This document shows positions 3,252 through 9,161 of a DNA stretch of 14,944 nt, piece after piece. Within the stretch, counting starts at the first letter, position 1. The number at the start of each line of letters is the position of its first letter. A program made the position numbers and the translations under genes. The notes under the pieces are model-generated. The model saw only the letters and a program-made list of their open reading frames with translations. It was not told the DNA's origin and did no database searches. This DNA comes from a virus (taxonomy: Duplodnaviria; Heunggongvirae; Uroviricota; Caudoviricetes). The stretch lies in the IMG/VR virus record IMGVR_UViG_2850802633_000001; one strand, written 5' to 3'.

Positions 3252-3341
3252 GGAGAGATGCCGGAGCGGCTGAACGGACCGGTCTCGAAAACCGGAGTGG
3301 GGGCAACTCCACCGGGGGTTCAAATCCCCCTCTCTCCGCCA
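3252..3341 (+). tRNA. serU: tRNA-Ser (anticodon CGA)
   Basis: GGAGAGATGCCGGAGCGGCTGAACGGACCGGTCTCGAAAACCGG...GGTTCAAATCCCCCTCTCTCCGCCA is 90 nt with a long variable arm, a CUCGAAA anticodon loop and a CCA end. This is the same gene order as serU-mtfA-asnT in E. coli. Confidence 0.92.
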
Positions 3342-3387: not shown

Positions 3388-3423
3388 TTGGAATTACTTG
3401 GAATATTTTCTTGGAATATTTTC
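3388..3423. repeat. Short direct repeats (CTTGGAAT, then CTTGGAATATTTTC and TTGGAATATTTTC in tandem) at the serU/integrase junction
   Basis: Seen directly at 3388-3395, 3397-3410 and 3411-3423, overlapping the last codons of the integrase gene about 50 bp from the tRNA-Ser 3' end. Confidence 0.5.
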
Positions 3424-4419
3424 AGGTAACGGGACATCAAGTGTCGGTGAAACTTTAACCTTCCTGTCATAGATTAGCACTTGCCCCTCGGTTTTGTGAC
3501 CAGAGAAAAGTTGCTTATCCCGACTGCTTCCTTCATAGTCTGAAATTCCTTTCGCCTTCAGATCATGAAAGGTGAAGTCGGTTAAAATACCTGAAATTTT
3601 GCCTGCGCGATTTCTTGCTTCTACCCACATTTCGTTAAAGCCTTTGTACATATATCGGTTGCCGTATTGATTGCTGATTACATAGGCGGATGTTGGTAAC
3701 TGTTTTGCTTTTTCGATCGCCGCCTGTAATCGTGGACTCCATGCTTTTATCTGTTTTTTTCCTGTTTTCCCTTGCTGGATAAAGATCCCGTCGTTTCCAA
3801 TCTGCTCCCATTTCAGCGATAACACATCGGAAACCCTCGCTGCACACAGATAGGCAATTTCCATTGCGATAAAAACAGGAAGAGGTGCAACGCTTAATAC
3901 TGCCTGGTATTCTTTGTCGGTTACATATCGTTCGCGGTTTTTGGCCTTGAATTTACTTACACCTGCACATGGGTTAGCCTTCACGTACCCTCGCTCATAC
4001 CCCCAACTGTAAACGCGGGACATACTGCTTTTTTCATGGTTGGCTTGCGTTTTACTCTGTTCCCCTCTCTTGTCCATGTATCGACGGATGTGTTCTGGTT
4101 TTATGGAATCTGCCGGCACCTTACCGAATACGGCAAGCAACTTTTTTTGATGTTGCAGATAATCTTTTTGTGTTCTTGGACTGAGGTCACTGTAATAGGC
4201 GCTGGCGAGGAATTTTTCCCACAAGCGACCGAATGTCATTGCACGATCGCGATTATTTACAGTTTCCTCATACTTTTTCCATAAAGCAGCTAAACCATCC
4301 TTGATGGCGGTTAGTGTTACAGATTCTCTGGATGTTGGTTTCCATACATAACTATATTTATTTGGGTATACATTTGGAGGTAATTTTTCGTGTTCAGGAT
4401 TTTTCCTTCGTCTTCCCAT
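3394..4419 (-). CDS. int: Lambdoid prophage integrase (tyrosine recombinase), apparently intact
   Basis: A 341-aa ORF ending next to the tRNA-Ser 3' end and transcribed toward it. The C-terminal region has integrase-like residues (FHDLKAKG ... LIYDRK). The N-terminus MGRRRKNPEHEKLPPNVYP is typical of phage integrases. Confidence 0.88.
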   Translation of the reverse strand: MGRRRKNPEHEKLPPNVYPNKYSYVWKPTSRESVTLTAIKDGLAALWKKYEETVNNRDRAMTFGRLWEKFLASAYYSDLSPRTQKDYLQHQKKLLAVFGKVPADSIKPEHIRRYMDKRGEQSKTQANHEKSSMSRVYSWGYERGYVKANPCAGVSKFKAKNRERYVTDKEYQAVLSVAPLPVFIAMEIAYLCAARVSDVLSLKWEQIGNDGIFIQQGKTGKKQIKAWSPRLQAAIEKAKQLPTSAYVISNQYGNRYMYKGFNEMWVEARNRAGKISGILTDFTFHDLKAKGISDYEGSSRDKQLFSGHKTEGQVLIYDRKVKVSPTLDVPLPENIPRKYSK

Positions 4420-5394: not shown

Positions 5395-5653
5395 ATACAG
5401 CGAACGCTATTGGTTTAGTTGGATATTTACTGTGCCGGACAAAAACGGTTTGCAGGGAAATCTTAGTTAAGTAGAATGACTGCGGGTGCTTGAGGCTATC
5501 TGTCTCAGGCATGAACACCAAAAGGCAGATAGAGAAAAGCCCCAGTTAACATTACGCGTCCTGCAAGACGCTTAACATTAATCTGAGGCTCAATCCATGC
5601 TGAACACATGTAGGTTAGCCTCTTACGTGCCGAAAGGCAAGGAGAAGCAGGCT

Positions 5654-5809
5654 ATGAAGCAGCAAAAGGCGATGTTAATCGCCCTTATCGTCATCTGTTT
5701 AACCGTCATAGTGACGGCACTGGTAACGAGGAAAGACCTCTGCGAGGTACGAATCCGAACCGGCCAGACGGAGGTCGCTGTCTTCACAGCTTACGAACCT
5801 GAGGAGTAA
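5654..5809 (+). CDS. hokD: Hok/Gef-family type I toxin (HokD/RelF-like, 51 aa)
   Basis: The translation MKQQKAMLIALIVICLTVIVTALVTRKDLCEVRIRTGQTEVAVFTAYEPEE matches the HokD/RelF sequence as I remember it. GGAGAA lies about 7 nt upstream of the ATG. The track ORF 5597-5809 is an in-frame upstream extension. Confidence 0.85.
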   Translation: MKQQKAMLIALIVICLTVIVTALVTRKDLCEVRIRTGQTEVAVFTAYEPEE

Positions 5810-7315: not shown

Positions 7316-7681
7316 ATGACCGAACGCATAGAATTTGTTTTGCCTTACCCGCCAACGGTGAACACCTACTGGCGACGTCGTGGCAGCACATATTTTGTAT
7401 CAAAAGCCGGTGAGCGTTATCGCCGTGATGTGGCGCTAATTGTTCGCCAGCAGCGACTGAAATTAAACCTGTCCGGAAGGCTGGCGATAAAGATTATTGC
7501 AGAGCCACCGGATAAGCGCCGTCGTGACCTGGACAATATCCTGAAGGCACCGCTGGATGCGCTGACGCATGCTGGACTACTTATAGACGACGAGCAGTTT
7601 GATGAAATCAATATTGTGCGCGGTCAGCTCGTTCCTGGTGGGCGGCTGGGGATAAAAATCACAGAACTGGGGTGCGCATGA
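7316..7681 (+). CDS. rusA: RusA-family Holliday junction resolvase
   Basis: The translation MTERIEFVLPYPPTVNTYWRRRG...DKRRRDLDNILKAPLDALTHAGLLIDDEQ has the RusA signature, including the acidic DLDN catalytic region. The start abuts the upstream stop (TAAATG). Confidence 0.85.
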   Translation: MTERIEFVLPYPPTVNTYWRRRGSTYFVSKAGERYRRDVALIVRQQRLKLNLSGRLAIKIIAEPPDKRRRDLDNILKAPLDALTHAGLLIDDEQFDEINIVRGQLVPGGRLGIKITELGCA

Positions 7682-8361
7682 ATAACCAGTATTTACAGTT
7701 TGTGCGTGAGCAGCTCATTATCGCCACCGCTGATTTGAGTGGGGCAACAAAAGGTCAGCTTGAAGCCTGGCAAGAGAATGCCATGTTCGATACAGGGCGT
7801 TACAGGCGTAAAAAAATCCGGTACCGCGATGAAGTGACTGGAAAAATGATAACGCGGGATAATCCACCAATCCCGGGAAAGCAATCGCTGGCGAAGGGGA
7901 CGTCAATTCCTCTGGTCAGTCCGGTTGAGTTTTCGACATCATCGTGGCGGCGGGCTGTTCTGTCTCTTGAAGAGCACTATAAAGCCTGGTTGTTGTGGTG
8001 TTACAGCGGGAGTATTTGTTGGGAATATCAGATCGCGATAACACAGTGGGCGTGGAATGAATTTAATGCTCAATCCGGTACCAGAAAAATTGCAGGGAAA
8101 ACGCAGGAACGCCTGAAAAAATTAATCTGGCTGGCGGCGCAGGCAGTAAAAGCAGAACTTTTTGGTGGGGAAGGTTATGAATACCAGGAGCTGGCATTAC
8201 TGGCGGGAGTGACAACTAAAAACTGGTCCAAAACATTTACTCGTCACTGGGTTGCAATGAAACACATTTTTCACCGACTGGATAGTGAGGCTTTATTGTT
8301 TGTAATGAGAACACGTTCAAAAAAAAGACGGCATTTTCAAAGCAAAGTGTTGCAAAAGTAG
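7678..8361 (+). CDS. Putative late-gene antiterminator Q-family protein
   Basis: The ATG at 7678 overlaps the rusA stop (ATGA). The gene order rusA - this gene - terminator - tRNAs - holin is the canonical lambdoid Q position. The assignment is positional; I do not recognise a Q motif in the sequence. Confidence 0.6.
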   Translation: MNNQYLQFVREQLIIATADLSGATKGQLEAWQENAMFDTGRYRRKKIRYRDEVTGKMITRDNPPIPGKQSLAKGTSIPLVSPVEFSTSSWRRAVLSLEEHYKAWLLWCYSGSICWEYQIAITQWAWNEFNAQSGTRKIAGKTQERLKKLIWLAAQAVKAELFGGEGYEYQELALLAGVTTKNWSKTFTRHWVAMKHIFHRLDSEALLFVMRTRSKKRRHFQSKVLQK

Positions 8362-8431
8362 ATTAAAAGGCATATATTCATGCAAATCTGATACTTTGCC
8401 GATTTTGTACGTGATGGCAAAAGCAAACAAA

Positions 8432-8455
8432 ACCCGCCCACAAGCGGGTTTTTTG
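8432..8455 (+). terminator. Rho-independent terminator (tR'-like) downstream of the Q-like gene
   Basis: ACCCGC-CCACAA-GCGGGT stem-loop followed by a run of six T at 8449-8455. Confidence 0.7.
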
Positions 8456-8559
8456 TGCCACTTATCTCGGATAGACATGGTGAATGCGCTGGTGGAGGAG
8501 ATAAGGGTGATTTTTGAATGCTTGCAACATTGATTTCGTAACGTTATTATCCTGCGCCC

Positions 8560-8635
8560 GGCCCTTTAGCTCAGTGGTGAGAGCGAGCGACTCATAATCG
8601 CCAGGTCGCTGGTTCAAATCCAGCAAGGGCCACCA
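8560..8635 (+). tRNA. tRNA with CAU anticodon (Met or Ile2/lysidine type, as ileZ in Stx phages)
   Basis: 76 nt: GGCCCTT acceptor stem, CTCATAA anticodon loop, GCTGG-TTCAAAT-CCAGC T-arm, discriminator A and CCA. One A-C mismatch in the anticodon stem. Confidence 0.85.
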
Positions 8636-8636
8636 A

Positions 8637-8713
8637 CCGCCACTAGCTCATCAGGAAAGAGCGTCAACCCTTTAAGTTGAGTGTGCGAGGTTCGAGTCCC
8701 CGGTGGCGGTCCA
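8637..8713 (+). tRNA. tRNA-like gene, atypical; anticodon loop CCTTTAA would give UUU (Lys) with C at position 33
   Basis: 77 nt with a 7-bp acceptor stem (CCGCCAC/GTGGCGG), a D-arm containing GG, a perfect 5-bp anticodon stem (TCAAC/GTTGA), a T-arm with one A-C mismatch and a CCA end. Isotype is uncertain. Confidence 0.6.
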
Positions 8714-8715
8714 GT

Positions 8716-8791
<76 letters not shown>

Positions 8792-8794
8792 TAT

Positions 8795-8869
<75 letters not shown>

Positions 8870-9161
8870 GTCAGAGTCTTTCAGTCTGCGATGATGGGAA
8901 ATCCCGGAGTGACTGAAAGACGTTTAAGTTATGAATGATCGCTTTTTTTTGCAAAATTGCTGTGCAGAAATACTAACCTTCGGGCAGGCGATCATTCATA
9001 AGCACTCTGCTTTTATTCCGATTAACTGTGAGTGGTTTGTTGGATAGAGTGCTTTCCTTACTGTATATATCGTTTCGCCCGCTTTTGCGGTTTTTTCTTT
9101 TCAAATCCCTTTCATTTCTCAGTGTAAAACTACGCCATCCGTTATTTGCGGAGGTGAGGCT

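Follow-up and report, generated by a model that had tools for sequence, protein, structure and literature searches.

A prophage tRNA gene with anticodon UUU and C33 on an argN-type arginine tRNA body, a possible nuclease-insensitive lysine decoder in Escherichia coli and Shigella

What is a tRNA gene whose anticodon reads lysine codons, whose body belongs to a family of arginine tRNAs, and whose anticodon loop carries C in place of the near-universal U33? This question is raised by a 77-nt gene at 8637..8713 (plus strand) in a 14,944-nt stretch of caudoviricete DNA, IMG/VR record IMGVR_UViG_2850802633_000001 (the window, by which we mean the whole stretch). It is the second gene of a four-gene prophage tRNA cluster and is called the UUU tRNA here. 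The first-pass annotation had described a good cloverleaf with the loop CCTTTAA, and hesitated between a decaying copy, an unusual functional tRNA and a misread isotype. Our analysis indicated that 8637..8713 is almost certainly a real tRNA gene of the argN family whose anticodon has been switched, and on balance we think its product is probably a functional decoder of lysine codons. The fuller reading, a lysine-charged decoder whose sequence would make it insensitive to nucleases directed at tRNA-Lys, is offered tentatively.

The gene reads CCGCCAC TA GCTC ATCAGGAAA GAGC G TCAAC CCTTTAA GTTGA GTGTG CGAGG TTCGAGT CCCCG GTGGCGG T CCA, with C1-G72, A20, U73 and an encoded CCA end. All pairs of the acceptor stem (7/7), D-stem (4/4) and anticodon stem (5/5) are Watson-Crick, and the T-stem forms four of five pairs, A51 (8688) standing opposite C63 (8700). 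The anticodon loop CCUUUAA occupies 8669..8675, with C32 at 8669, C33 at 8670 and U34-U36 at 8671-8673, followed by A37 and A38. The cloverleaf, the loop, C33, the anticodon and the T-stem A-C mismatch were thus all as first described. ARAGORN called a tRNA-Lys(ttt) with exactly these coordinates, and RefSeq copies with 100% identity are labelled tRNA-Lys by PGAP, so the suspicion of a misread isotype can be dropped. The match to the Rfam tRNA family RF00005 reached 44.4 bits (E = 8e-7, far past chance; gathering score 29 bits), which together with four arms and a 7-nt anticodon loop places the gene among the tRNAs, although the other five tRNAs in the window all scored higher, at 57-73 bits. 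A minimum-free-energy fold of the single sequence returned no cloverleaf (z = -1.46), the method being uninformative here. Judged as a possible pseudogene, the allele at 8637..8713 has intact helices and a 7-nt loop, yet it has C33, and sister alleles are damaged. An ochre-suppressor reading (UUA) was considered and rejected: the standard register gives UUU, and the 1-nt register shift that UUA needs would leave one base 3' of the anticodon, which is implausible in a 7-nt loop.

The body of this tRNA pointed to its ancestry. The UUU tRNA shares 84% identity with argN, the tRNA-Arg(UCG) of Shiga toxin (Stx) phages (80-84% across argN alleles). In 933W (L0101), VT2-Sakai and Stx2a_F349, argN also follows ileZ in second place, between Q and the lysis/stx genes, and it is likewise 77 nt long, with C1-G72, A20, U73 and the same D-arm. 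The T-arm of Stx2a_F349 argN is identical to that of the UUU tRNA, A51·C63 included, and pair 51-63 is polymorphic across the family (GU 11, GC 4, AU 2, unpaired 6), which removes the A·C mismatch as a sign of decay. The two genes differ in the loop, CUUCGAA in argN versus CCUUUAA in the UUU tRNA (positions 33, 35 and 36), and their stem differences all keep pairing: U27·G43 became U27-A43, U7·G66 became C7-G66, G3·U70 became G3-C70, and G30-C40 became A30-U40, a full compensatory change. Whereas argN keeps C35 and is an arginine acceptor, the UUU tRNA cannot be a normal one. The first-pass annotation had also set the cluster apart from the ileZ-argN-argO set of Stx phages. This holds for its threonine and glycine genes, but the first gene is ileZ, the second is an argN homologue, and PPompW phages carry an intermediate ileZ / Lys-type / argO arrangement. 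In the papers searched for ileZ, argN and argO we found no use of these names in the relevant sense, and in those searched for prophage or lambdoid tRNA-Lys no description of the UUU tRNA.

The same scaffold was found well beyond Stx phages. When one genome of each bacterial species was scanned for its pattern, it appeared in prophage regions of Salmonella, Enterobacter, Leclercia, Serratia, Yersinia, Cedecea, Hafnia, Citrobacter and others. Its features, all present in the UUU tRNA, are a CCGCCAY acceptor strand with C1-G72, a D-arm of the form TAGCTCA..GGA.AGAGC with A20, a length of 77 nt and a site after Q. Members carry the anticodons UCU (most of them), CCU, UCG (argN), UAU or UUU. Those of Salmonella arizonae and diarizonae read CCU on an anticodon stem, UCAAC/GUUGA, exactly as in the UUU tRNA. 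An IMG/VR contig (L153) has the scaffold with UUU in a normal CUUUUAA loop (U33), on a separate branch and with a C31·U39 mismatch, and its anticodon arose independently of the C33 clade. By this pattern the scaffold is a single phage tRNA body that has switched its anticodon repeatedly. Because it has U35, and not the C35 (with U or G36) of an arginine tRNA, the UUU tRNA belongs to the scaffold by descent only. Its nearest relatives were all Arg-type prophage tRNAs, and no homology of the body to bacterial tRNA-Lys was seen. Host E. coli tRNA-Lys(UUU) (lysT family) shares the anticodon and U36-A37-A38 but differs in the acceptor stem, D-loop and anticodon stem, having G1-C72, U16U17, stem GUUGA/UCAAU, U33 and A73 on an unrelated body. 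The host molecule carries mnm5s2U34, N6-threonylcarbamoyladenosine at position 37 (t6A37) and pseudouridine at 39 (PMC12409363).

An ungapped alignment of the UUU tRNA with 23 relatives (24 members, 77 columns, mean column identity 84%) showed standard pairs in 97.7% of pair cells (shuffles, 89.7 ± 0.9; slid controls, 33-52%), with both-sided changes at all five anticodon-stem pairs and at pair 7-66. Covariation in the family supports all four helices of the cloverleaf. Rfam scores of scaffold members ranged from 61.1 bits (Cedecea, UAU) and 59.9 (Enterobacter, UCU) through 54.8 (Sakai argN) and 54.4 (Salmonella, CCU) to the 44.4 of the UUU tRNA and 43.0 for Stx2a_F349 argN. Since this last gene has U33, the low score is to be traced to the scaffold with its A·C pair and not to C33. 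The covariance check that had been proposed therefore returned a score above threshold, similar to that of an argN, and a standard isotype, while C33 and the arginine-type body under a lysine anticodon remain atypical.

Several scaffold members and their clusters showed further irregularities. A33 occurs in the member of Yersinia phage YeP2 (L124, 1501-1578; loop CAUUGCC), whose homologue in the related phages YeP1 and YeP3 is apparently the gene annotated as tRNA-OTHER, and in that of Hafnia paralvei (L151, 5904-5981; loop CAUAUAA). In Citrobacter braakii (L137) the gene is an Arg/Gly chimera whose 3' half is glyT, and an Stx2c phage (L128) has a Lys-type copy without an anticodon loop. Prophage tRNA clusters appear, from such cases, to turn over quickly.

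Which amino acid would such a hybrid carry? Bacterial lysine identity lies in U34, U35, U36 and A73, and U35-bearing suppressors take lysine; arginine identity lies in A20 (the main element in E. coli), C35, U or G36, and A or G73 (PMC9976931). The UUU tRNA has U34-U35-U36 in the standard register, and of the arginine set it retains A20 and U36 without C35. Because all three lysine determinants of the anticodon are present and C35 is absent, charging by lysyl-tRNA synthetase (LysRS) is most likely, and some charging with arginine may occur.

The next point was whether the positions recognized by tRNA-Lys-directed nucleases are present. AriB, the nuclease of PARIS, needs U36AAUC|A41 and U16; the change U39A abolishes cleavage, and A41C and U16C impair it (PMC12409363, PMC11464382). 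The UUU tRNA has G39, U40, U41 and C16 where host tRNA-Lys has U39, C40, A41 and U16. At the level of sequence it has what a nuclease-resistant replacement tRNA would need, namely the anticodon of the host target with changed recognition and cleavage positions. P2-OLD, which mediates P2 exclusion of lambda, cuts tRNAs with paired CNG motifs in the anticodon stem (PMC12445682). The argN stem contains such motifs, C28AG30/C40UG42 (CAG/CUG), whereas the UUU tRNA has CAA/UUG, both motifs being lost because pair 30-40 is A-U. We predict from these positions that the UUU tRNA is insensitive to PARIS-AriB and to P2-OLD. PrrC cuts 3' of U33, and RloC cuts there too (PMC2610378); in the UUU tRNA the nucleotide at this scissile position (33p34) is C. 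C33 blocks t6A formation by yeast and E. coli enzymes, E. coli TsaBCDE being unable to place t6A37 on a U33C tRNA (PMC8887486), and it should prevent this modification in the UUU tRNA as well. PrrC requires ct6A37, according to Belukhina et al.

Taken together, these observations suggest the following course. The UUU gene descends from the arginine tRNA scaffold of enterobacterial lambdoid prophages, its anticodon having been switched to UUU. It would be transcribed with its three neighbours, from a promoter of the cluster, from the Q-dependent late transcript or from both, and then be cut free by RNase P and trimmed at its 3' end. LysRS, an anticodon reader, would most probably charge it, and AAA and AAG would be decoded as lysine. 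The arginine-type body lacks what the nucleases use, that is U39, C40|A41 and U16 for AriB and the paired CNG motifs for P2-OLD; C33 alters the scissile-bond nucleotide of PrrC and RloC and should stop t6A37 formation. Most likely, the tRNA would then serve as a reserve decoder of lysine codons, one that survives the destruction of host tRNA-Lys but decodes less than optimally. That counter-defence is the role for which the gene was selected is a more doubtful proposition, which we hold rather unlikely on the present sequence comparison. It is less probable still that C33 itself is adaptive, an arginine tRNA having been re-tooled into a t6A37-less "stealth" tRNA-Lys that survives several unrelated tRNA-Lys-directed nucleases. 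In a more radical variant, partial arginine identity through A20 may make lysine codons ambiguous in late infection.

C33 proved to be a constant feature of this clade. It was present in all 150 UUU-clade copies fetched (loops CCTTTAA in 146, TCTTTAA in three and ACTTTAA in one), and no non-C33 version of the clade's anticodon arm, that is no U33 revertant or intermediate, was found in IMG/VR or in metagenomes. Every Arg-type scaffold member has U33. Among 105 distinct tRNAs predicted by ARAGORN from all 189 fetched sources, 86 have U33. The other 19 comprise 15 alleles of the UUU gene, three other scaffold members (two with A33, from YeP2 and Hafnia, and one from Yokenella whose loop has 6 nt) and one tRNA-Thr of a Yokenella prophage. 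This Yokenella regensburgei tRNA-Thr(UGU) (L135, 2457-2532, minus strand) has C33 in the loop CCUGUAA, reads an ANN codon, has an A27·C43 mismatch, and belongs to a homologous cluster in which Ile2 is truncated and a glyT-like gene is mutated. This threonine variant is absent from IMG/VR. A convergent C33 was considered as a sign of selection and dropped, as the Yokenella cluster is visibly degenerate and the variant has no IMG/VR copy.

The gene was found in 798 of 5426 complete E. coli genomes (about 15%), in 279 at >=99% identity, in 474 at 95-99% and in 45 at 90-95%. A deposited Escherichia phage genome, vB_EcoM-606R7, carries it at 100%. PGAP labels the 100% and 98.7% copies tRNA-Lys and leaves the 97.4%, 96.1% and lower classes unannotated; the annotated share of E. 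coli copies is ~43%. By sequence, the 97.4% class matches the 1-nt D-stem deletion of PPompW prophages in enterohaemorrhagic and enteropathogenic E. coli, and the 96.1% class fits a C4U + U8C + C11U haplotype. Among 146 viral and metagenomic copies, 85 were identical to the window, 23 had the U8C haplotype and 17 the D-stem deletion. The commoner changes in stems put U for C opposite G and so leave the pair intact, whereas pair-breaking G-to-A changes occur in 1-2 copies each. These results showed weaker constraint on the UUU gene than on its neighbours, though not free decay of its main allele.

Several of these and other observations weigh against a selected, nuclease-proof decoder. The discriminator at 8710 is U73 and not the A73 of lysine tRNAs. 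More than half of the E. coli copies have further lesions and are unannotated in RefSeq; representatives of the D-stem deletion and of U8C, and a third variant (L007), do not reach the Rfam threshold; and one Stx2c phage lineage has lost the anticodon loop entirely, its copy receiving no ARAGORN call. Across 70 whole-cluster loci, per-site diversity of the UUU gene was 0.0197, 2-4 times that of the neighbouring tRNAs (Ile2 0.0046, Thr 0.0094, Gly 0.0089), with 0.06 in the 15 nt of upstream spacer. C33 should cost function, because U33 underlies the U-turn of the anticodon and t6A37 aids AAA/AAG decoding (PMC5041475, PMC9654439). A second prophage tRNA with C33, the Yokenella tRNA-Thr, lies in a plainly decaying cluster. 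Since the clade is young and does not extend beyond E. coli and Shigella, intact stems and a fixed C33 may reflect descent and not selection. Absence of the AriB and OLD determinants is inherited from the arginine scaffold and need not have been selected. Finally, the tRNA-Thr(UGU) of the cluster keeps the host AriB site U36AAUC|A41 and the paired CUG/CAG motifs, and host tRNA-ThrU protects little against P2-OLD (PMC12445682). The cluster as a matched anti-PARIS and anti-OLD kit was accordingly rejected: Thr and Gly are copied from the host, and the Thr gene (UAAUCA retained, 99.4% identical to thrU), unchanged from the host at the sites of both nucleases, is no variant companion of the kind such a kit would include.

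Much of this would follow equally if the gene were a relic in early decay, which we regard as a substantial though not the leading possibility. An argN-type gene would have lost its arginine anticodon by two or three transitions, for example U33C and C35U from a CUUCUAA loop, and, being redundant because host tRNA-Lys is abundant, would now drift with little or no role in translation, still transcribed and perhaps processed with its neighbours. The breach of a near-universal feature by a t6A anti-determinant of E. coli (PMC8887486), the sampled copies outside the ~43% that go unannotated, the sub-threshold U8C and D-stem variants, the phage lineage without an anticodon arm, and the highest diversity of the four cluster tRNAs all fit such a history. 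So does the readiness with which related clusters decay, as seen in a glyT remnant in Salmonella, the Citrobacter Arg/Gly chimera, the Yokenella cluster with its truncated Ile2, mutated Gly and C33 Thr, and the aberrant loops (A33 or six nucleotides) of other scaffold members; the window prophage is itself riddled with insertion sequences. A relic is harder to reconcile with the commonest allele, that of the window, in which no stem is disrupted save at the A·C pair common to argN, and with stem changes from argN that all keep pairing, one of them fully compensatory. The scarcity of G-to-A changes that would create A·C pairs, beside commoner pairing-neutral C-to-U changes, points the same way, as do the presence of the allele in deposited phage genomes and a loop unvaried at positions 33-38 in 150 copies, although this invariance is not statistically significant. 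Decay also leaves unexplained a clean, in-register sense anticodon with U36-A37-A38 kept.

Ordinary codon supply would require neither decay nor defence: the gene would provide a working lysine tRNA for A-rich phage codons, with C33 neutral. All four cluster tRNAs read A-ending codons (Ile2 AUA, Thr ACA and Gly GGA, besides AAA), and the plain host copies of Thr and Gly fit a dosage effect. In the intact prophage of E. coli SMS-3-5, which has the same cluster, usage per 1000 codons was 7.8 for AUA, 10.9 for ACA, 13.1 for GGA and 60.8 for AAA plus AAG, above the values of about 4, 7, 8 and 44 typical of E. coli. Such codon usage is compatible with a dosage effect of Ile2, Thr and Gly, and only weakly with one of Lys, because the host already has six tRNA-Lys genes (the median per E. 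coli genome, six identical copies). tRNA-Lys(UUU) is thus among the best supplied, lysine codons are enriched only about 1.4-fold, and a hypomodified C33 tRNA would be a poor gain in capacity. Moreover, the codons most over-used relative to the host, AGA, AGG and CGA (7.8, 5.1 and 7.8 per 1000), are those whose tRNAs (argN, argO) the window cluster has given up. We consider this explanation quite improbable.

In the SMS-3-5 prophage, the tail chaperone G gene ends GTT AAA AAA AAG TAG (L188, 1963-1974) with the T open reading frame (ORF) in the -1 frame, and tRNA-Lys(UUU) reads both codons of this dnaX-type A AAA AAG slippery site. The site was absent from four other Lys-tRNA loci with enough downstream sequence, and a link between it and the UUU tRNA, seen in SMS-3-5 only among the five loci inspected, is unsupported. 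A non-canonical function, whether arginine inserted at lysine codons after ArgRS charging through A20, a decoy for tRNA-binding defence proteins or modulation of -1 frameshifting, could appeal to that site, to the retained A20 and U36 and missing A73 (PMC9976931), to Candida tRNA-Ser(CAG) as a classic anticodon-switched tRNA without U33 (PMC5041475) and to the competition or decoy effects of phage tRNAs raised by Belukhina et al., but with C35, the other major arginine determinant, absent, U35-bearing tRNAs readily charged by LysRS (PMC9976931) and the slippery site limited to one locus, it is highly improbable.

The surroundings of the gene are those of a lambdoid prophage. The late antiterminator gene Q lies upstream (7672..8361, plus strand; Pfam Phage_antiter_Q, E = 3.7e-91), and the gene order from Q to the tRNAs is also annotated in E. 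coli SMS-3-5. At the tR' position between Q and the tRNAs, the terminator scan found a GC-rich hairpin followed by a T-run at 8429..8458 (plus strand); the scan scored the minus-strand reading of this segment, and the plus strand has TTTTTTGTG after the hairpin. The VT2-Sakai and Nil3 records annotate a terminator or tR' at the equivalent place. A promoter scan found a sigma-70-like promoter at 8522..8550 (plus strand), TTGCAA-17 nt-TATTAT followed by the GC-rich, discriminator-like CCTGCGCCC, which ends 9 nt before the first tRNA. The block is common to the window, VT2-Sakai, Stx2a_F349 and PPompW, and the VT2-Sakai record names its equivalent "putative tRNA promoter". As it is conserved while the DNA farther upstream is unrelated, and in view of this annotation, it is probably the cluster's own promoter, and expression from it as well as from the late transcript is plausible.

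The cluster order CAU, UUU, Thr-UGU, Gly-UCC given at first was borne out by ARAGORN, with spacers of 1-3 nt. The leading tRNA(CAU) (8560..8635, plus strand; ARAGORN, Rfam 72.5 bits, PGAP label tRNA-Ile) is an ileZ-type tRNA-Ile2, identical over its full length to Stx-phage ileZ. The tRNA-Thr(UGU) (8716..8791, plus) and tRNA-Gly(UCC) (8795..8869, plus), both found by ARAGORN and Rfam, are copies of host thrU and glyT. Their stretch matches the chromosomal thrU-tyrU-glyT locus at 99.4% in 5421 of 5426 E. coli genomes. In the prophage only 3 nt separate the two genes, tyrU and the intergenic DNA of the host locus being gone; the prophage has evidently captured both genes from its host, as far as this match tells. 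Position 8724 is G in the window but a host-like A in 59 of 70 related loci.

The segment from tRNA-Gly to the holin gene contains three perfect inverted repeats (8876-8921, 8929-9001 and 9000-9054; 11-, 14- and 9-nt arms), and a GC hairpin with a T-run follows at about 9076-9100. The first hairpin recurs 3' of the related clusters of L153 and Yokenella (L135), where the arms differ and are still complementary, as judged by eye. An Rfam search of this region returned no family at E <= 1. These features suggest a conserved structured RNA 3' of the cluster, perhaps a processing or termination element.

The holin gene (9162..9377, plus; Pfam Phage_holin_2_1) is the first late gene downstream of the tRNAs. 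After it, IS1 (DDE_Tnp_IS1) and IS3-family (rve) insertions identified by Pfam, at 9679-10182 (minus) and 10257-11291 (plus), truncate the lysis module, and just past them lies a gene for an ipaH-type effector with leucine-rich repeats and a NEL E3 ligase domain (11991-13634, minus). Because these insertions break the lysis module after the holin, the window is, by its gene content, a prophage remnant of the Shigella type. The tRNA cluster persists in this remnant, which bears a type III effector. The representative S. flexneri genome carries the tRNA unchanged, in an 8-kb locus to which two stretches of the window correspond at 99.4-99.7%. On the left flank of the prophage are a chromosomal tRNA-Asn(GUU) (2185-2260, minus) and a chromosomal tRNA-Ser(CGA) (3252-3341, plus); the integrase gene (3394-4419, minus) abuts the latter, which is likely the attachment site. 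Rfam also matched CssrB at 13762-13941 (plus, 230 bits), the sok antitoxin/CssrC at 5484-5659 (plus, 119 bits) beside a hok-like ORF, and IS009 at 14698-14901 (plus, 129 bits).

Phage tRNAs that replace destroyed host tRNAs have recently become known from T5 against PARIS and from a phage tRNA-Thr against P2-OLD, mainly in large virulent phages. If the UUU tRNA acts as proposed, it would be a case from temperate phages, carried by about one in seven complete E. coli genomes and by Shigella, and it would have arrived by another evolutionary route, an anticodon change on an unrelated body rather than mutation of a lysine tRNA. It would also provide a natural bacterial test case for the part of U33 and t6A37 in decoding and in nuclease recognition. 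If the gene is decaying instead, it advises caution, as annotation pipelines take it for a normal tRNA-Lys and the tRNA clusters of prophages turn over fast. In either case the scaffold family documents repeated anticodon switching.

Among known systems, natural tRNAs without U33 are found in Candida tRNA-Ser(CAG), which has G33 and, like the UUU tRNA, a body of one identity with the anticodon of another (PMC5041475), and in the initiator tRNA-Met of multicellular eukaryotes, which has C33 and works in the P site. Both are eukaryotic and unrelated in sequence, and the likeness is one of resemblance only. A phage counterpart is the tRNA-Lys(UUU) by which T5 neutralizes PARIS. It is a Lys-type molecule with G1-C72, A73 and a CUUUUAA loop containing U33, whereas the UUU tRNA has an Arg-type body with U73 and C33; T5 supplies variant Thr and Asn tRNAs in addition, whereas the Thr of the window cluster is host-identical; and its resistance and rescue have been shown experimentally, whereas those of the UUU tRNA are predicted. 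In common, both are phage-encoded, both carry the anticodon of the host target, and both are changed at positions 39, 41 and 16, the resistant T5 molecule having A39, C41 and C16 (PMC12409363, PMC11464382) and sharing this C16 with the UUU tRNA.

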